Source: an uncultured Thermococci archaeon
GTDB taxonomy: Archaea > Methanobacteriota_B > Thermococci > Thermococcales > Thermococcaceae
Reading direction: 5' to 3'
Length of the DNA: 13,341 nucleotides
Assembly (NCBI GenBank): GCA_964615185.1
Contig: CAZTOS010000063.1
Location: 1 to 13,341, forward strand
In this document: positions 2,949-13,261 of the stretch, piece after piece
Layout of the letters: each line of letters opens with the position of its first letter
Position numbering within the stretch: the first letter of the stretch is position 1
Translations under genes and position numbers: made by a program
Notes under the pieces: model-generated
What the model saw: only the letters and a program-made list of their open reading frames with translations
Told to the model about the DNA's origin: nothing
Databases searched by the model: none

Positions 2949-3977
2949 TCACTTCTTCTTCATGAACCAGCTCTCCAAAGTTGATTGTTTTCCTGCTCTT
3001 ATTGCTTTCTTCAGCCTTTCGAGACCGTTCTTTACCCTCTCCTCGCTGAAGTCGTGTTCATCACAGAGGAACTTTAAAATGCCTTCTTCATCTGGCATCT
3101 TCCAGACGAGCTTGTAATCATCTGTAACAGGCGGATTTAGGAAGAACTCCTTGATTGCATATAAATCAACGTCGCTCATCTTCTGATACTTCTTCAGTGG
3201 ATCTTTTGAATATCTGGCAATCTCCAGAGCTTTCTTTGGACCAACCCCCTTGATTCCTCCCGGATTATAATCGGTTCCAACCAAGATAGCCAGTTCTATG
3301 AGCTTTTCCCTGTCAATCTTCAGTTCTTTTAAAACTTCCTCCAAAACAATCAGCTCTGGCTTTACTTCAACATAAACATCTTTTCCAGGAAGCTTTCTTC
3401 TACCTGTTATTGTCAAATTCCTAACAAGCCTTGGTGCTCCAAACAAAAGTGAGTCATAATCCTGAGAAGCTGAAGCCCAGACTTTACCCTTTGATGCCAT
3501 ATAAGCCGCTTGAGCCTCACCTTCACTTGGAGCCTGCACCCATGGAATGCCCATGAGTTCTAAGAGTTTTTTGGCATCTTCAATCAGCTGCTCATTCACC
3601 CTTGAAGCTCTCTGAGCATATTTCTTTGCCTCCTCCAGATCACCTCTCGCCAAAGCCTCTTGCCACTTTTCCTCAGCTTCTTCCCTCGCTTCCGCTCTCT
3701 TTTCAAGTTCCTTCTTTTTGAATTCTGGCGGCTTTCCATCAAAGACATACGCCGGCTTTATTCCTGCTTCCATGAGGTTTATCGTCCTGTAGAACAGCCC
3801 GGAGAGATGTGAAGTTATCCTCCCCTTAGAGTCCATGAGAGGGGTTCCATCTCTTTGTCTGATGATAGACAAGAACTGATAAATTGCATTCAGGGCATCG
3901 ATGGCTATCTTCCTTCCGTTTAGATTTTCAATCTCAATTTCTTTTCTTGGAACAAGCTCACCTATCTGAACTCCCAT
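2949..3977 (-). CDS. fen: Flap endonuclease-1
   Basis: [41 protein letters not shown]3[19 protein letters not shown] and C-terminal PIP box QSTLESWF. Confidence 0.98.
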
Positions 3978-4205
3978 TACTCCCCACCCATCTTAATGTA
4001 TAGTATCCTAAATACAAATATAAGGCCTGCGATTGCAAAGAGCTTTATAGCATCCTAAAATCGGAAGCAACAACAATCTTTTGAATTAATGCAACAATCC
4101 CAATACATGAATCAGGCCAACACGGTGCTGCCTCAAATAACTACCATATCAAAGTTCTGAAGGCTTTATGAACCTGCGTACATTGGACGACTTTCTCTTG
4201 CCATT

Positions 4206-4263
4206 TTCATCAGCCTACCGGTGTGCTCATCACCCCTCAGATGAGGGGAAGGGTCATCATCAC
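4206..4263 (-). ncRNA. Box C/D methylation-guide sRNA
   Basis: The minus strand reads ATGATGA (C, 4260-4254), CCCTTCCCCTCAT, CTGA (D', 4240-4237), GGG, GTGATGA (C', 4233-4227), GCACACCGGTAGG, CTGA (D, 4213-4210). All four boxes are consensus and both guides are 13 nt. Ends are approximate. Confidence 0.92.
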
Positions 4264-4282: not shown

Positions 4283-4295
4283 CTTTAAAACATTG
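4283..4295 (-). promoter_or_regulatory. Putative TATA box for the C/D sRNA
   Basis: Minus-strand TTTTAAAG lies roughly 20-27 nt upstream of the predicted sRNA 5' end. Confidence 0.5.
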
Positions 4296-4366
4296 TTCCC
4301 CTAATGGATAGGTGATTTTTAAAGCGATTTTGGAAAGCTACTGATGGCATGTAAATGTACATAAAT

Positions 4367-4597
4367 TTTTGATTACTCTTCAAAGTTTTTGATTTTTAAT
4401 TTTTGTGTATTTTGAAATTAGAGCCTTTTTAGTGCTTACTTTTTTTCCAAAGCTATTTTTACTATTATAAATCAAAAAATTTAAATAACCTAATGGACAT
4501 AATAGTCATGAAAATTTCCCATGGTGATGTCAATGAGGTGGAAGTTGCTTGGTGTTTTGTTACTAAGTTTGTTGGTTTTAAGTTCTTTTGGTAGTGC
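4367..4597 (+). repeat. Promoter + RBS + signal-peptide module, copy 1
   Basis: Colinear with 7625-7855. Shared blocks: ACTCTTCAAAGTTTTT, TTTTTAGTGCTTACTTTTT, ACTATTATAAATCAAAAAATT, GACATAATAGT, TGGTGATGTCAATG, AGTTCTTTTGGTAGTGC. Confidence 0.95.
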
Positions 4598-5750
4598 CGC
4601 AGTGCCAAGTAATGAAGTTTCTCCAGTACTTGCTGAAAAAGCTGCCAAAACCTACGTGAATTGGATTGCTGTCAACATTCCTGACTTCAAAGAGTGGAGA
4701 GGTGCAACTCTTGGAAAACCCATTACTTACTACTTTCCCAATGGTGAGAAAAGTGCTTATGAGTTTGCAGTTTTTAAGAACGGCAAGAATGTTGGATTTA
4801 TTCTTGTTTCGGCAAGAAAAGACATGCCTCCAGTTTTGGAGTTCAGCAAGGCAAAACCACCAAGCTGGAACTTAGAAAAAGTTAAAGAACTCGCAGAAAA
4901 GAAAGATTACAAGGCTGGGAAACTACTCTATTACGGAGCACTAACTTACAGCGTTGATATTGGAAACGGGAAAGCAATAGGCTTAAAAGACATGAAAGTG
5001 AGAAAATATCCAATGAACGTAGAACTAAAATTCAACAAAGAAAAAGCAAGAAAAGACTGGGAAAAAATTGCAAATACCGGAACCATCACTGATACAAAGG
5101 AAATAGTACCCTTGGCTACTGCAGTAATAGGATTCATTGAGGGAGTACCAGCCTGGACATCAACGGATTATGGAGATGCTTATTATCTTGACTATCCGGA
5201 TAATGTGGGGCCCGCAACTGATCCTTGGGATGACTGGGACGGTTGTGCAGCAATAGCCGCTTCAATGATTATTGCGTATTATGAGCCACAATTACAGGAT
5301 GACTGGAACAGGGAAGCAATAATTGATGTGCTTCACTACACTATGAATATTGATTATAATGGAGGATCCTATTGGTGGAATCAAGTAGAGGGCATTAAAA
5401 ACTTTAAAGAGGAATGGGACAGCTTAACTGGATGGATAGTATCTGATTCAGTATATCATGACTTTACTGCAACATTCTATGAAGACTATAATGATCTCGA
5501 CATAATATCTGAGGTTAACAGCGATCACCCATTTATACTTGGACTTGAAGGAGGTGGGAGTGCAAATGACCGTAATGTTCCATATGGAAATCATGCCGTA
5601 ACTGGTGTGGGTTATATTGCTGCGTGCTCAGGAAACTATTACTGTGATGTAGCATATATTGAAATACATGACACTTGGGACTTTGAAACTCATTACATTG
5701 CCAACGGAAACTGGCAGGATGCAGACATGATAAAGGTGAGGACTGCATGA
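4533..5750 (+). CDS. Secreted papain-fold cysteine peptidase (C10/C39-like) with signal peptide and Spi/I69-like propeptide
   Basis: Signal peptide MRWKLLGVLLLSLLVLSSFGSA. Prodomain motif GFILVSARKDMPPVLEFS. Catalytic-type motifs GCAAIAASMIIAYY (Cys codon 5244), GNHAVTGVGY (His 5592) and IEIHDTW (Asp 5670). Start ATG 4533 is preferred over 4521 because GGTGA at 4523-4527 precedes it and the 4521 equivalent is TTG in copy 2. Confidence 0.82.
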   Translation: MRWKLLGVLLLSLLVLSSFGSAAVPSNEVSPVLAEKAAKTYVNWIAVNIPDFKEWRGATLGKPITYYFPNGEKSAYEFAVFKNGKNVGFILVSARKDMPPVLEFSKAKPPSWNLEKVKELAEKKDYKAGKLLYYGALTYSVDIGNGKAIGLKDMKVRKYPMNVELKFNKEKARKDWEKIANTGTITDTKEIVPLATAVIGFIEGVPAWTSTDYGDAYYLDYPDNVGPATDPWDDWDGCAAIAASMIIAYYEPQLQDDWNREAIIDVLHYTMNIDYNGGSYWWNQVEGIKNFKEEWDSLTGWIVSDSVYHDFTATFYEDYNDLDIISEVNSDHPFILGLEGGGSANDRNVPYGNHAVTGVGYIAACSGNYYCDVAYIEIHDTWDFETHYIANGNWQDADMIKVRTA

Positions 5751-6763
5751 AATCTTCACATGCTTCTTTTGTCGTTCTGCTAATTTTTGTTTTAATTGTA
5801 GTGGGCCTAGTTTACTATCTACCAACACCAAGAACTAATGAAAATAATTATCCCCAAAATTTCAGCAAATCTCTTCTATCAAAAAATGTCATTTCTCAGA
5901 CATTGGAACCATTTACACTCTTTTATGGTCAGATTGAAAACAAGAGCTGGACAACTTTTAAACTCCCAGGATATTTAGATAAGTTTGAGGGAAGAATAGA
6001 AGGGATAGAAACAGTTGTTTATGCTTATCCTAACGTAAGCTCTTGCATACCTGTTTATGAGCGCATAAAAGATGCTCTTTTCAATGGAGGATTTCAGATT
6101 TATAATATCTCCGAAGAGAGCAAGCATGATTGTAAGTGGATTATACTTACAAATTCCAACGAAACATATTATATTGAATGTAGCGAATTTCTGGAGCATG
6201 GAAGACTGCTAATAATTTACGGAAATTTGTCTGAGGTTATCAAACTTGCACAGAGAATACCAACTCAAAGTTGTCAGCCCCCTAGGAGTGAATCAGTTTA
6301 TTATGGACCCTCTGTCCAGAAGGTTATCTCATATACTCTTGGAGTGACAAGAGCTGAGGAACCGATCCCCCTCTGGCAAAAAGAATGGACAGCAAAATTT
6401 AACCTAACTCCATCGAATTATATTCTCTCAAAAGAAGGGTATTTGAATTTAACCCTCAATCCACGGTTTCCTGTGAATACAACTGCAAATATGGGAATTT
6501 TCATTTATGAGAACCTGACTACATGTAAAATTGAAGTCAAAGAGCTTTCCAATAGACTCTTAAGAAAAGGCTATCAAGAAAAAGACATCCCCAAAAGAGT
6601 CCCCGCAAGGATAACCGTCAGTAGAGTATTACTTTCAAAAATGCTTCAAAAAGATGAGGACGCAGTGTACATTGAATGCACCTATGTTATGGGATACGGA
6701 AGGCTAATAATTCTGAAAGGAAAACTGGAAGAATTGGAAAAATTAGTTTCTATTCTCTCATGA
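5747..6763 (+). CDS. Membrane-anchored extracellular protein with two copies of an uncharacterised YIEC..GRL domain
   Basis: One N-terminal hydrophobic helix and 10 N-x-S/T sequons. Repeats YYIECSEFLEHGRLLIIYG and VYIECTYVMGYGRLIILKG. ATGA overlap with the protease stop, with AGGTGA RBS at 5734-5739. Confidence 0.85.
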   Translation: MKSSHASFVVLLIFVLIVVGLVYYLPTPRTNENNYPQNFSKSLLSKNVISQTLEPFTLFYGQIENKSWTTFKLPGYLDKFEGRIEGIETVVYAYPNVSSCIPVYERIKDALFNGGFQIYNISEESKHDCKWIILTNSNETYYIECSEFLEHGRLLIIYGNLSEVIKLAQRIPTQSCQPPRSESVYYGPSVQKVISYTLGVTRAEEPIPLWQKEWTAKFNLTPSNYILSKEGYLNLTLNPRFPVNTTANMGIFIYENLTTCKIEVKELSNRLLRKGYQEKDIPKRVPARITVSRVLLSKMLQKDEDAVYIECTYVMGYGRLIILKGKLEELEKLVSILS

Positions 6764-6788
6764 GATGCGTGACATTGAGGTGTGAAAT

Positions 6789-7586
6789 ATGAAGAGAAAT
6801 TTTGTTCTTTTGCTTGTTTCATTCTTTTTCTTTGTTGGAGTTTTGCTGAAATTATCTGACAGGGCAATGTTGTTCATCCCCTTCTTTATATTTGCCTTCA
6901 TCTTCTCGTTCACTGGTGAAAAGCCCTTAACCGGATTTATTGCATTTGGAGGGGGTTTGTTATTTGCCAAAGTAGTTGAAGAATGCTGGGCACTTCTTTC
7001 TGACCTTTACAAAATTCAGGGATGGATAGTTTGGATTATTGGAATATTCGTGCCAAGTATTATATTCTCCCATTTTGTATCCAAAATTACACAAAAAAAC
7101 AAGCACATTGTTTTCGCTGTTTTTGTTCTTTTTCTAATCCTAACAAGCATGAATATAGACTCGCCCCCACAGGCAGTTGCATTTCGAACAGCTTACGCTC
7201 TTGGAGCATCTTCTAAGGATTATGATGATAGCTGGCTCAAGGAGTACCCCTTTCTGCCCAAGCACTATGGTGGATTGTGGGTAGGGAGAACTTCAGAGTA
7301 TTATGTTGCAGTATACGTTTGGCGTTGTTATGCTTTCTGCCCATTAGGAAGTTCTCTATGCAAGAGAGCATATGATGAATCTTTGAAGAACTTAAAAATG
7401 ATGAGATTTAAAGAACTAAACATTACAATACAACGAAGAGCAGAGAACAAGGTCTTACTCTCAAATGGGACAACCATGATATATCTTGAATGTTCTGAAA
7501 AATCTGGATACCAAAGACTAATCTTCCTTGTTAGGAACACCAATGAAACTGAAAAATTTCTCCGACTTATTGAAGACCTTAGATGA
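6789..7586 (+). CDS. Multi-pass membrane protein with a C-terminal YLEC..RL domain
   Basis: About 4-5 hydrophobic segments in the first ~120 aa; the soluble C-terminal part is paralogous to 12566-13261; GAGGTG RBS. Confidence 0.85.
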   Translation: MKRNFVLLLVSFFFFVGVLLKLSDRAMLFIPFFIFAFIFSFTGEKPLTGFIAFGGGLLFAKVVEECWALLSDLYKIQGWIVWIIGIFVPSIIFSHFVSKITQKNKHIVFAVFVLFLILTSMNIDSPPQAVAFRTAYALGASSKDYDDSWLKEYPFLPKHYGGLWVGRTSEYYVAVYVWRCYAFCPLGSSLCKRAYDESLKNLKMMRFKELNITIQRRAENKVLLSNGTTMIYLECSEKSGYQRLIFLVRNTNETEKFLRLIEDLR

Positions 7587-7624
7587 GTTACGAAGAACCT
7601 CCCATCTATATCAAAAATGCAATG

Positions 7625-7855
7625 TTTTGGTCACTCTTCAAAGTTTTTAAAACTTAAGTTTCTCCCCATTTCAAAAATCAGGACGTTTTTAGTGCTTACT
7701 TTTTGATTAGATCTTTACAACTATTATAAATCAAAAAATTAAATAGTCTGGTAGACATAATAGTTACGAAAACTTCCGTTGGTGATGTCAATGCGGTTGA
7801 AGTTGTTAAGCTTTTTGTTACTAAGCTTGCTGGTTTTGAGTTCTTTTGGTAGTGC
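7625..7855 (+). repeat. Promoter + RBS + signal-peptide module, copy 2
   Basis: Colinear, diverged copy of 4367-4597; similarity stops abruptly after the ...GGTAGTGC codons (GSA). Confidence 0.95.
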
Positions 7856-9146
7856 AGGAATTGGCAACAGTGATAAGGCCAAGAGTTGTCAGCTTGTGAG
7901 TTATTGGGTTTTTGAGAATGGGCAGTGGGTTGAGAAGAGCGAATCCAGAGTTTGGTGGTATTGCCAAGAACCTGAAAAAGCCAAGGATTTTGATGGGTTT
8001 GCCTTCAGGGAAATGTCTTATGGATTGTTCAAAAAGCCTGATGTTAGGATTCTACATCAAGCTGCAAGGGATTTAGCTGATTTGGTGGGGATTGACGAGC
8101 TTCATGGCAAATTCTCAACAAATCTGCCTTCTTACGGAGGAATGTTTATTAACGAGGAGAAAGGATTAATCTTTGTGTACGTGAAGAACGAAAAAGACAA
8201 GGAAAAAATCAAACAAGTATTAGGAAAATATAGGGGAAAAGTAAACATAGTGTTCCTTAAGGGAAGATACAGCTTTGACCAGCTAGTAAAGTGGAAAGAA
8301 AAGGCAAGAAAACTTTTTAGAATCAGAGAACTTGAAGTTACAATGCTTGACGCCGATGAAGCCCACAACACTTTAACAATTGGTTTAGCGAACGTAACAT
8401 CAGAAAAACTGAAACTTCTTGAAAACGAATTAGAAAAACTCGGGATACCAAAAGAAGCCGTAAGAATAGAAAAGAGGAATCCTGGTATGCCCACTTTATC
8501 ACCAACTGATGAATTTGATCCTCTCATTGGTGGAAGTAAAATAACTGCTCCTAGAGGATCACGTACGCTAGGATTTACATCCAAAATTAACGGAGAAGAT
8601 TATTTTGTAACAGCTGCACATTGTGCGGAATTTGGAGTAACTGGAAAACCAGTGTATCAACCTTGGGGTATTGGTTCATGGCGTAAAGTTGGAATCATTA
8701 TAAAGAATCCACCCTTAAGTTCAAATTTCCCTTCGAGACTTACGGATAGCATGTTAGTCAAAGTTTCGGGAAGGGATATTGATCACAAGGTTTACTCAAA
8801 TTGGAATGTTGTCGGAACTGCAGAAAGTTACGTAGGAGCTTATGTTTGTAAGATGGGAGTAGCTACATACACAACATGTGGATACATAACAGAAACACAC
8901 AGTTCAATTGGTATAGACAGAGATAATGACGGATACACTGACTATTGGCTCTTTGATGTTGGTATAACTTGTTGTATGGATAGGGATGAAGGCGATAGCG
9001 GTGCTCCTGTCTTTTATGAATCGTGCTACACAAACGACATCAGTATCGTTGGCATACTAAACGGTAGATACTATGATGGGATATATTACAGTGAAATTGA
9101 TGGTATATTCACAGAACTTGGCAATATGGAGGTGTCTTGGAGTTGA
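7791..9146 (+). CDS. Secreted S1-family (alpha-lytic/streptogrisin-like) serine protease with a long prodomain
   Basis: Signal peptide MRLKLLSFLLLSLLVLSSFGSA. Motifs TLGF, YFVTAAHC (His codon 8619), TDSMLV (Asp 8745), VCKMGVATYTTCG and GDSGAPVF (Ser 8997). Start ATG 7791 follows GGTGA at 7781-7785. Confidence 0.9.
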   Translation: MRLKLLSFLLLSLLVLSSFGSAGIGNSDKAKSCQLVSYWVFENGQWVEKSESRVWWYCQEPEKAKDFDGFAFREMSYGLFKKPDVRILHQAARDLADLVGIDELHGKFSTNLPSYGGMFINEEKGLIFVYVKNEKDKEKIKQVLGKYRGKVNIVFLKGRYSFDQLVKWKEKARKLFRIRELEVTMLDADEAHNTLTIGLANVTSEKLKLLENELEKLGIPKEAVRIEKRNPGMPTLSPTDEFDPLIGGSKITAPRGSRTLGFTSKINGEDYFVTAAHCAEFGVTGKPVYQPWGIGSWRKVGIIIKNPPLSSNFPSRLTDSMLVKVSGRDIDHKVYSNWNVVGTAESYVGAYVCKMGVATYTTCGYITETHSSIGIDRDNDGYTDYWLFDVGITCCMDRDEGDSGAPVFYESCYTNDISIVGILNGRYYDGIYYSEIDGIFTELGNMEVSWS

Positions 9147-10381
9147 AAAGACTCTTCCTTCTAATCCTTCTTTTCCTTTTGATGTTCTTGATATCCACAT
9201 TCTATATCTTCCCCTACGTGAAGGAGAGAACTGCATACTTTGCAGTGAACGTTTACTATCCGGGTGAGCTTGAATATAAAGGCTATGAAATTGAAGGGGA
9301 TAAAATTATCTTTAAGTTTGAGGTTAAAGAAAGGAGTAACGAGATTATCAGGAACCGTGCCTTTCAAAGGATAATTAAACTTTTTGGAAAGAGTCCCTGG
9401 GATGTGCCTGGTGTTTACGTATCTATCAATGGAAAAACATTCAAAGCATATTTTGGGGTAAGTGATTTTGTGACTATAAGCTATTGCGCTTCGCCCTATG
9501 ATATGGAAGAACTTGTCGAAATCTACACTCCAAACGGATATCAAGTTAAAGAGATCTCTCTTGAAAACAAAAGTTTAGTTATATCACTTGAAAAAGGCAA
9601 TCAAACAAAACCAAAAATTGTGAGATATGAATCTTTAGCTTGGATACTGAGGCATAATCGGATAAAAGTGGTTTATGTGAGTGAAAACAAAATGTGGGAT
9701 GGTATGGTTGGAGATAAAGGTCCCAAATGTCCCGTTGTCATTTTACCCAAGGAAAACGTTGAGAATATGCATCAAACTAATTATTCTACTCTTAACTCGT
9801 TGAATGATAATATTAGTATTTCATATAAAAAAGCATATTTCACACTCTTCCTTTACTATCCAGGTGAAGCAAAATACGTAGGCTATGAAATCACAAATAA
9901 CAGTATACTCTTCAAATTTGAACACCTCTCAGAAAATGTCTCTTTAAAGCTCATTAAAGTAAAGGAGCTCATCGAATTTCAAGACGAACCAGACGTTAGG
10001 GTTCTCGTGTTTGTCAATGGAACTCCAGAATTCATTAATGTGGTAAAAGGTCTCGGACAGCCAACACTACCACCACGCTATTTTTATCATGCCTCTCCTC
10101 TTGATCTCGAAACCATAGCGATAATTCTTCCTCCAGAGAACTCAACGGTACAAGGAATAAGCTTTGAAAATGGGACCTTATTTATTAATTGTTTAAGGAG
10201 TGAAGGAATACATGGAAAAATAATCTCATCAGAAATAATAAAAGAACACCGCAAAGAGATTTTCGAGGATAAAATAGTCTTTGTAATAGATAATAACAAC
10301 AAGATGATTAAAGTTAAAGGCTGTGCAACATACAGTGGAGAAAAAACACCACCCCTAATAACATTATGCAATAAAAACTGA
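9143..10381 (+). CDS. Membrane-anchored extracellular protein with a tandem ~200 aa duplicated domain
   Basis: N-terminal TM helix and 9 sequons. Repeats AYFAVNVYYPGELEYKGYEI (from 9233) and AYFTLFLYYPGEAKYVGYEI (from 9833). TTG 9143 is preferred over 9137 because GGAGGTG at 9128-9134 is properly spaced and it gives a TTGA overlap with the protease stop. Confidence 0.85.
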   Translation: MKRLFLLILLFLLMFLISTFYIFPYVKERTAYFAVNVYYPGELEYKGYEIEGDKIIFKFEVKERSNEIIRNRAFQRIIKLFGKSPWDVPGVYVSINGKTFKAYFGVSDFVTISYCASPYDMEELVEIYTPNGYQVKEISLENKSLVISLEKGNQTKPKIVRYESLAWILRHNRIKVVYVSENKMWDGMVGDKGPKCPVVILPKENVENMHQTNYSTLNSLNDNISISYKKAYFTLFLYYPGEAKYVGYEITNNSILFKFEHLSENVSLKLIKVKELIEFQDEPDVRVLVFVNGTPEFINVVKGLGQPTLPPRYFYHASPLDLETIAIILPPENSTVQGISFENGTLFINCLRSEGIHGKIISSEIIKEHRKEIFEDKIVFVIDNNNKMIKVKGCATYSGEKTPPLITLCNKN

Positions 10382-10400
10382 ATACTGAATCTCACTCACA

Positions 10401-10410
10401 CTTTTTTTAT
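10401..10410 (+). terminator. Oligo-T terminator of cassette 2
   Basis: T7 run at 10402-10408, about 20 nt after the stop codon. Confidence 0.5.
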
Positions 10411-10480
10411 CATCCAACAATTGTTCAAAACCCATGGTCTATTTAACAAGTGCCGATGTATGACTCGGCAAATTGATAAG

Positions 10481-10494: not shown

Positions 10495-10539
10495 TGATTT
10501 TTCAGATTAACCTTTGTAAAGTTTATTGGGGTGAAGGAA

Positions 10540-12110: not shown

Positions 12111-12563
12111 TTGGGGAGTGGGATAGTGAACTGGGAAAGAACCTTAGAAAATTATGAAAGAGCAAACCGAAGAATAGGGCGAACTTTTATTTTACTGGGA
12201 ACTGTAATCGCCGTGTTTGGAATTGTAAGCGTCTACCTGAATTTTGAATACCTCTGCATTCAAGCGTTTGGAACAATACCTCCAGATACCAACAGCGCTT
12301 TGGCTTTCATGGCATTTTCACTCCCCTACCTCTTCACAGGCATTGGACTTGGATTGTTGGGAATAACAATTGAGAGGAAACTGAACTTAAAGAATGCAAA
12401 AGTCCCTTTAGTTGTGTTGATATTTCTACCAGCCATTTATTCTGTAACAAAGTTTTCTCTGGCTTATCTAATGGGAACATACTACCCACCAATCAGCGTG
12501 CTTAGGGAAACCTTGCTAACAGCGGTTCTAATAGCGGGATATATACTTCTGAAAAGGGGATAA
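12111..12563 (+). CDS. Hypothetical 4-TM membrane protein
   Basis: Four hydrophobic segments. The true start may be GTG 12126, which follows GGGGAGTG. It ends 2 bp before the next gene. Confidence 0.75.
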   Translation: MGSGIVNWERTLENYERANRRIGRTFILLGTVIAVFGIVSVYLNFEYLCIQAFGTIPPDTNSALAFMAFSLPYLFTGIGLGLLGITIERKLNLKNAKVPLVVLIFLPAIYSVTKFSLAYLMGTYYPPISVLRETLLTAVLIAGYILLKRG

Positions 12564-12565
12564 AG

Positions 12566-13261
12566 ATGAAGAGCAAGAGCATTCTCATCCTCGTGATCTT
12601 AGCATGTGGCATTGTGATGTCTCCCATCTTTCAGTATGCATTAATTTCTATTGCAGAGCTCTTTGGATTAAGATTATCATTTTTCACGGCTTTTAGTATT
12701 TCCGCATTAGTTGTTTCATTACTTCCAGCATGGTATGTCAAAACCTACATTAAAGAGCATGACACTGCAATAAAAGCCTTCACAGTAACATTAATCCTCG
12801 CCTTCTCCATATCTTTCATACTATCACTCAGAACAGGTCCAAGTCCTCAAGCAGCAGCTTACCTTACCATACATCCAAGAGACAGACCCAGCTTTAATTC
12901 ACAAAATCATGAATGGCTCGAAGAATATCCCTTCCTTCCAAAAAACTACAATGGCTTATGGGCTGGGCAAGTTTTGGATTATTACATAGCAATCTACACG
13001 TGGCGCGAGAATCTTTTCTTGGGCGAATATCTATGCAGAAAAGCCTTCAACTCTGCAGAAAAAGAATTGAAATCCAAAGGATTCAAAGAATTGGACATAA
13101 CAATTCAGAGAAAAGCTTACAAGAAAGCTATTTTGTCAAACAAGACTACACTGATTTACATTGAATGTTCCGAAAAACTTGGATATCGGAGGCTGATTTT
13201 TCTCGTCGGAAATACCAACGAAACTGAAAAATTCCTCCGATTTATTGAAGATCTTAGATAA
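12566..13261 (+). CDS. Membrane protein with a C-terminal YIEC..RL domain; paralogue of 6789-7586
   Basis: Three hydrophobic segments, then WLEEYPFLPKNYNGLWAG ... IYIECSEKLGYRRLIFLVGNTNETEKFLRFIEDLR. Confidence 0.85.
   Translation: MKSKSILILVILACGIVMSPIFQYALISIAELFGLRLSFFTAFSISALVVSLLPAWYVKTYIKEHDTAIKAFTVTLILAFSISFILSLRTGPSPQAAAYLTIHPRDRPSFNSQNHEWLEEYPFLPKNYNGLWAGQVLDYYIAIYTWRENLFLGEYLCRKAFNSAEKELKSKGFKELDITIQRKAYKKAILSNKTTLIYIECSEKLGYRRLIFLVGNTNETEKFLRFIEDLR

Follow-up and report, generated by a model that had tools for sequence, protein, structure and literature searches.

A candidate polymorphic protease effector–immunity system at a variable locus of Thermococcales

Introduction

In the pairs SpeB/Spi and staphopain/staphostatin, a protease has a partner that protects its producer, and the SpeB inhibitor Spi is homologous to the protease prodomain. 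Polymorphic toxin systems combine a conserved N-terminus with a variable C-terminal effector and an adjoining cognate partner gene; orphan cassettes, polyimmunity proteins and polyimmunity loci are further traits (Zhang et al. 2012, PMC3482391), and papain-like C39 peptidases are among the toxin domains listed in that survey. Its accessible text does not mention 'Thermococc', and the 2021 paper on the VARTIG locus of Thermococcales (PMC8416519) calls predicted archaeal polymorphic toxins untested and VARTIG itself devoid of an identifiable toxin. Here we analyse a stretch of 13,341 nucleotides (nt; the window), which is the whole contig CAZTOS010000063.1 of a Thermococcales assembly (GCA_964615185.1; 2.26 Mb, 95.6% complete), and which shares these features with polymorphic toxin systems. 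It encodes two predicted secreted proteases, CysP and SerP, each overlapping the gene of a membrane-anchored partner. We propose, with a probability of roughly two in three, that the locus is a polymorphic protease effector–immunity system, in which secreted proteases would attack the surfaces of neighbouring cells and cognate surface proteins would neutralise them.

The comparisons cover 99 Thermococcales genomes, with the surroundings of most matches, and 11 metagenome loci; for SerP, the range was assessed in the 99 genomes, one metagenome scan and the PDB. L-numbers denote loci compared and X-numbers sequencing runs compared with the window.

Pairing of catalytic domains and partners

SerP was compared across 11 loci, or 55 pairs (10 intact copies and one whose catalytic frame is truncated; the divergent L129 and the remaining broken copies were excluded). 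Prodomains are 59–83% identical among these loci and catalytic domains 28–96%. All 16 pairs with catalytic identity of 51% or more have homologous partners (>=32 bits), and all 39 pairs at 39% or less have unrelated ones (<=6 bits). Each of the 32 SerP C-termini with downstream DNA is followed by a partner of the family matching its clade (11 P2, which is the family of partner 2, 8 C5, 11 C15a, 1 C51 and 1 BsuPI), a count reached after removal of five duplicates (L174, L176–L179) and of L183, which has no downstream DNA.

In the CysP family, groups in the tree of 29 full-length catalytic domains match four partner classes (window with L130, 100/98; D240, 100/99; TM155, 100/100; E300, 100/99), and a quick prodomain tree mixes D240 with TM155 and sets the window apart from L130. 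The CysP of L130 is 43% identical to that of the window in the prodomain and 73% in the catalytic domain, and has the same partner type; the CysP of L031 is 90% identical in the prodomain and 51% in the catalytic domain, and has a different one. Specific co-occurrence of protease and partner across genomes, on which the preliminary description of the window had staked its interpretation, is thus found in both families. Two features of polymorphic toxin systems are accordingly recognisable in the sequences: a conserved N-terminal export part joined to a variable, putative effector domain at the C-terminus, and a partner gene directly downstream that is predicted to be effector-specific.

A shared export module

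Interchangeable catalytic domains sit behind a promoter, signal peptide and prodomain that are conserved. The promoter and signal-peptide module that had been noticed ahead of both proteases is real: its two copies are 78.5% identical over 233 nt (E 1e-46), with identity ending immediately past the end of the signal peptide at FGSA, and neither a further copy nor a second copy of either protease was found in the 2.26-Mb assembly. All 18 aligned module copies have the likely start ATG. At E<=0.01 the module has matches in 30 of the 99 genomes, with E<1e-9 in 21 of these. Its payloads are of at least six types: SerP, CysP, a DUF6345 protein (above the Pfam cut-off), an LssY_C-like protein (weak Pfam support), a protein of 356 amino acids (aa) that has no Pfam assignment, and a coiled-coil protein that ends at a contig edge. 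Every payload with known downstream DNA is followed by a membrane protein gene. At most CysP loci of Thermococcus, the largest genus, no module match was detected, so the module belongs to SerP and one CysP lineage. At L046 (10128–12083) the upstream half of the module precedes a different secreted protein of 244 aa and a helical membrane-anchored partner of 401 aa, a pair for which Pfam gave no informative match.

Exchange between close strains

Seven of the 16 listed runs were compared with the window; bins without coverage were disregarded. Runs X3 and X4 are ~98% identical to the window over cassette 1 (CysP and partner 1). Together with X6 they depart from it at 8342, inside the SerP prodomain, into a protease of the L033 type (29/30 nt match), and X3, X4, X6 and X13 return to it at 9127, coming out of the terminal part of a C5-type partner gene (20/20 nt to L181). 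X6 therefore shows both ends of the swap and X13 the second end alone; X3 and X4 keep the last codons of the old protease together with partner 2. The L181 contig presents a continuous order of module, L033-type SerP, C5 and then window 9132–9205. X6 also joins 4445 to 7720, cassette 1 being lost between the two module copies, and the contigs of X6 and X14 that reveal an empty site have just 25 and 41 nt on the short side of the join.

Exchange of putative effectors among close strains, a further feature of polymorphic toxin systems, is thus represented here. The idea of interchangeable protease effectors survives with a refinement, as the swapped unit is mainly the catalytic domain plus its partner behind a conserved prodomain. 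Exchange would proceed by homologous recombination in the module or prodomain and a non-homologous 3′ junction.

Remnants, orphans and fused partners

New pairs of catalytic domain and partner replace old ones, leaving remnants, orphan partners and fused two-domain partners. Protease 3′ remnants precede cognate partners at many loci (e.g. L031, L043, L044, L123, L134, L141, L151 and L182), and many loci hold arrays of three to five partners. SerP is broken in 17 of 33 copies. An open partner is kept beside 16 of 17 broken or remnant SerP copies and beside all 15 intact full-length ones. Some orphan partners are themselves broken (L054, the C5 copy of L036, and L160).

The genes at 6789 and 12566 had been called spare copies of the partner-1 domain. 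They do carry that domain (blastp E 3e-4 and 2e-7), but spare is the wrong word: by their sequence relationships they are cognate partners of other CysP alleles, of the L037 and L032 types, neither of which was found in this assembly. The ratio of nonsynonymous to synonymous substitution rates (dN/dS) is 0.26 for the 6789 gene, 0.12–0.20 for the 12566 gene and 0.10–0.32 for orphans overall (orphan–orphan 0.12–0.30) versus 0.03–0.06 for flanking core genes, the orphan pairs including time spent as cognate genes. Ahead of the second orphan lies a three-helix membrane gene of 150 aa (12111–12563), which at the same site in L202 and L203 follows a fused P2+C15b partner, so that this looks like a second hotspot of orphan partners.

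Both window partners had been described as tandemly duplicated domains. This was rejected, since their halves are just 27% and 29% identical and each half also stands alone elsewhere; the two-domain partners are, as judged from these comparisons, fusions of distant paralogues. Domain A of partner 1 is the type that follows this CysP clade, and occurs alone behind the same clade in L130 and L171; domain B also stands alone in P0003 (49% identical). Partner 2 is a mosaic, with 9001–9747 86% identical to L036, whose partner has one domain only, of 208 aa, and 9750–10432 93% identical to L076, where that domain follows a different SerP clade. Mis-assembly of this fusion was rejected because contigs of four other runs (X2, X3, X4 and X13) bridge the domain junction. 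Candidate orphan C-terminal cassettes, orphan immunity arrays and polyimmunity fusions, as known from polymorphic toxin systems, are all represented.

Predicted proteases and their partners

CysP had been labelled a papain-fold protease. The catalytic domain matches Peptidase_C39_2 (E 1.9e-4) and the prodomain I69/Spi (E 6.8e-4), both weakly and under the Pfam cut-off, and all 23 aligned relatives keep the catalytic Cys and His; the relative in L135 matches C10 at E 3.9e-4, also under the cut-off. At E<=1e-4, CysP matches occur in 41 of the 99 genomes, fragments and signal-peptide-only matches included, and homologues are present in Thermococcus nautili, T. indicus, T. camini and T. thermotolerans. 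CysP relatives were also seen in Dehalococcoidales and in haloarchaea; the haloarchaeal ones have twin-arginine-like leaders, and a small lipoprotein or membrane protein comes after them in three of six loci examined (L209 4170–4532, L213 4235–4696, L214 2075–2383). Pairing of protease and partner may extend beyond Thermococcales.

The model of the partner-1 domain (pLDDT 88) has a PsbP/Mog1/DcrB-like fold, with structural matches to TM1622 (Z 10.6, root-mean-square deviation 3.1, 113 aligned), DcrB (Z 9.2, 3.6, 106) and the PknH ectodomain (Z 9.1, 3.2, 120). Likeness to the immunity proteins Tsi3 (Z 5.5) and Smlt3025 (Z 5.2) lies within noise and was not used; likeness of fold does not show function. 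The domain occurs in 43 of the 99 genomes, in part within surface proteins with four repeats, which were included in the seeds. Such proteins, of 630–650 aa with four partner-1 domains (L040 2254–4206, L047 486–2375), are common in one genus and do not adjoin CysP; they may act as polyvalent shields, or the partner domain may have originated from them. Partner 1 met just unnamed clusters at ~0.9 in the ESM Atlas. NCBIfam gave no match above cut-off.

SerP had been read as a chymotrypsin-fold serine protease, and its family profile matches alpha-lytic protease (E 2e-14) with the His/Asp/Ser triad in place; for its prodomain there is no Pfam match. SerP matches, counted as for CysP, occur in 23 of the 99 genomes. 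An X6 contig (depth 23) has T at 8536 and 8562, giving Ile and Cys as in L036, where the window SerP has Ser and Arg. At L048 (7362–9107) a SerP frameshifted in the prodomain reads stop-free into its P2 partner as one 581-aa frame.

The all-beta model of the partner-2 domain (pLDDT 88) had no Foldseek match at E<=0.001, which does not by itself establish a new fold, and the ESM Atlas gave no usable match. With 8 representatives at E<=1e-10, the family is narrow. P2 occurs in 21 of the 99 genomes, directly behind an intact full-length SerP in three, and several copies have no protease match within 1.5 kb. Stand-alone P2 homologues recur at one site (L198–L201, L204 and L206), again with no protease match nearby, beside genes that we take to be PheRS-alpha-like and/or threonine-dehydrogenase-like. 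The sole partner with an annotation is that of the divergent SerP relative in L129, which matches Pfam BsuPI ('intracellular proteinase inhibitor') above the cut-off. Homology between P2 and C15a is unsupported (probability 5%), and no support was found for a likeness of C15a to PrcB_C or for a G1 peptidase as the L041 payload.

Layout of the locus

The two-cassette layout of 4367–10381 was recovered, with every open reading frame where it had been placed (Table 1), partner 2 starting at 9137 or 9143. CysP and SerP resemble each other in the signal peptide only, the two partner families are unrelated (hhalign probability 0.6%), and both partners have one N-terminal hydrophobic helix, all as first described. 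The 4-bp overlap between protease and partner is certain for cassette 1 (ATGA); in cassette 2 it is 4 bp (TTGA) if the start is the TTG at 9143, which the spacing of GGAGGTG favours, and 10 bp if it is 9137. In relatives the tight coupling is kept but not the length, with overlaps or gaps of up to tens of bases.

Table 1. Features of the variable locus in the window
Feature	Coordinates	Strand	Description
Shared module, copy 1	4367–4597	+	AT-rich upstream; AAAAAATTTAAATA at 4474–4487, presumed B recognition element (BRE)/TATA-like; ribosome site GGTGAT; probable ATG start at 4533; FGSA at the end of the signal peptide
Shared module, copy 2	7625–7855	+	Likely start ATG 7791
CysP	4521–5750	+	Predicted secreted papain-fold proprotease; prodomain ~4599–5120, catalytic domain ~5121–5750 (estimated boundary); Cys242, His358
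Partner 1	5747–6763	+	Single N-terminal transmembrane (TM) helix and two PsbP/DcrB-like domains, A ~5879–6280 and B 6293–6760
Orphan partner	6789–7586	+	4 predicted TM and partner-1 domain; 80% identical to gene directly behind a different CysP allele (L037)
SerP	7779–9146	+	Predicted secreted alpha-lytic-protease-like proprotease; prodomain ~7857–8498, catalytic domain ~8499–9146; His281, Asp323, Ser407; strain swap point 8342
Partner 2	9143–10381	+	Single TM and fusion: domain A 9218–9751, cognate type; domain B 9750–10378, partner of other SerP allele (L076, 93% DNA identity)
Second orphan partner	12566–13261	+	3 predicted TM and partner-1 domain; 77% identical to gene behind L032 CysP allele
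Variable island, outer limits	4290–10407	.	Both points joined directly in related strains (empty site; X6, X14)

Between conserved flanks, presumably a FEN-1-like gene (2949–3977) and an acetate-CoA ligase-like gene (at 10531), the gene order is CysP, partner 1, the related membrane gene at 6789, SerP and partner 2. On the minus strand, 3977–4230 is a decayed copy of a small membrane gene, presumably PsiE-like, that is intact beside FEN-1 in L031, L032, L036 and L038. Cassettes elsewhere often lie within variable islands (L039–L048, L050), whose other genes we take to be rich in GNAT acetyltransferase, methyltransferase, MFS and CAAX-protease-like functions.

Possible functions

The interpretation as effectors with immunity proteins, offered in the preliminary description, draws support from the co-occurrence of proteases and partners, the C-terminal remnants with cognate partners, arrays, fusions, strain swaps, and the decay of proteases beside open partners. 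The proprotease would be Sec-exported and mature outside the cell with the help of its prodomain. The mature enzyme would cut surface proteins (S-layer, pili, binding proteins) of neighbours without the matching partner, and the membrane-anchored partner is predicted to neutralise its own protease allele at the producer's surface. Orphan and fused partners would broaden protection against the alleles of other strains. Extracellular protease effectors would need immunity at the surface, which the partner topology fits, and an outward-facing partner domain fits the 9–10 N-glycosylation sequons in partners (10 in partner 1) versus 0–1 in proteases. We lean slightly towards a broader reading, of strain-level warfare by diffusible allele-specific proteases that digest rivals' surfaces, met by a recombining surface repertoire of blockers from at least eight families, with the module as a portable platform onto which further unrelated effectors would be loaded (DUF6345, LssY_C-like, coiled-coil and 356-aa proteins).

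Several observations weigh against an effector–immunity system. The surveyed genomes are related by descent, so the pairing counts are not independent, and the analyst, who assigned the partner families and classes, took the seeds for them from the loci under comparison. For CysP, rank correlations with the partner barely separate the domains (catalytic 0.45, prodomain 0.41), and partner class C3tm is not a clean clade. The swapped piece is not spanned by any single run contig, and studies P3 and P4 are possibly one campaign. Three of 30 intact CysP copies have a frameshifted partner (L132, L147, L164), as does L076, where the protease ends at a contig edge; partners may be dispensable, or these may be assembly errors. 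Other jobs are possible for the PsbP-like domain, which many genomes carry in ~640-aa four-repeat proteins with no protease nearby, and for the P2 homologues without a nearby protease at one recurring site in about six genomes. The cognate past contained in the orphan dN/dS pairs counts here too. Finally, the window SerP has Arg at 8562, where a relative has the conserved Cys; its AAHC cysteine is thereby left without the usual disulphide partner, and the allele may be impaired.

The proteases might instead be nutritional, with partners serving as surface receptors or tethers that keep the enzyme at the cell and orphans capturing neighbours' enzymes, a piracy of public goods. Peptides are a growth substrate of Thermococcales (PMC8416519), specific capture would also be compatible with kept orphans, allele-specific pairing and partners that face outward, and the PsbP/DcrB/PknH fold is a general binding fold. 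We nevertheless consider this unlikely, given that the proteases are so often broken or absent, that wholly unrelated partner folds for related proteases suit an arms race better, and that one partner belongs to a family annotated as protease inhibitor (BsuPI, L129). Conflict is favoured over a tether or chaperone because related enzymes have unrelated partner families and partners survive the loss of their enzyme.

Self/non-self signalling, in which the protease would cleave or bind its cognate membrane partner as receptor or substrate and report kin with no harm to others, is raised as an option by the VARTIG authors for a similarly built Thermococcales locus (PMC8416519). Some partners are multi-pass with small loops (TM155, TM105 and C17), and the module also carries payloads with no protease match (LssY_C-like, coiled-coil), as signalling would allow; the single-TM partners, however, hardly extend into the cytoplasm, the loci lack a recurrent signalling gene, and we regard this explanation as improbable. 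Just as improbable is a partner that protects the producer from its own protease alone, with orphans as neutral recombination leftovers: tight coupling, the weak I69 match of the CysP prodomain and the broken orphans agree with it, but partners mostly stay open as proteases decay, orphan–orphan dN/dS is low enough to speak against it, and some cognate partners carry a non-cognate domain joined to them in frame.

If the effector–immunity proposal is true, hyperthermophilic archaea would possess an extracellular effector–immunity system, and the partners would be expected to include several new families of heat-stable protease inhibitors, one with no matched fold. Fighting and recognition among archaea are poorly characterised; the system offers assayable enzymes, a predicted matrix of cognate and non-cognate pairs and natural strain variants, by which archaeal antagonism and kin discrimination become directly testable.

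Comparison with described systems

With the alpha-lytic protease family and SpeB/Spi the locus shares a predicted zymogen layout and catalytic residues. Its partners differ in not being prodomain homologues and in coming from many unrelated families: no similarity was found between CysP and partner 1, and the partner model has the PsbP/DcrB fold. No account of such a system was found in the literature searched, which did not cover the archaeal polymorphic-toxin survey of Makarova et al. 2019, where such loci could be mentioned; nor do the accessible parts of PMC6393860 describe it. In S8-PTS (PMC9424270) the peptidase processes a separate toxin, unlike here. The halolysin HlyR4/HFX_0892 antagonism of haloarchaea (PMC12893001) likewise involves a secreted archaeal serine protease, but that protease activates a separate precursor, and the abstract describes neither polymorphic cassettes nor cognate immunity. 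Cpe1/Cpi1 (PMC12136450) pairs a papain-like protease that acts between microbes with a cognate immunity protein; Cpe1 is delivered by a type VI secretion system (T6SS) or contact-dependent inhibition (CDI) and cuts cytoplasmic topoisomerases, whereas signal peptides and surface partners are found here.

VARTIG (PMC8416519) belongs to the same lineage, and is also a hypervariable locus with a variable C-terminus, clade-specific downstream membrane proteins and interspecies exchange. It encodes large multi-Ig proteins in which its authors found no toxin domain, in contrast to the recognisable catalytic domains described here. Membership in VARTIG was rejected, as the island has no secreted multi-Ig protein of >500 aa (its longest open reading frame has 455 aa) and no Ig or CARDB Pfam match.

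The effector–immunity arrays of the Vibrio cholerae T6SS (PMC5361080) are alike in that a new pair displaces the old effector, the old immunity gene stays and 3′ remnants are left; the present locus differs in being archaeal, with no T6SS and with secreted zymogens as putative effectors. Polymorphic toxin systems as surveyed in PMC3482391 differ in their conserved part, which here consists of signal peptide and prodomain with no RHS, filament or injection domain. The partners differ too, being membrane-anchored, predicted to face outward and without a match to a Pfam Imm family. At the level of sequence the locus nonetheless behaves as a polymorphic toxin system: a conserved export part with variable effector-like domains, a specific downstream partner, orphan cassettes with arrays and fusions, and exchange among close strains are all present, and neutralisation and harm are predicted. 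We regard it as a variant of polymorphic toxin systems that is apparently undescribed.

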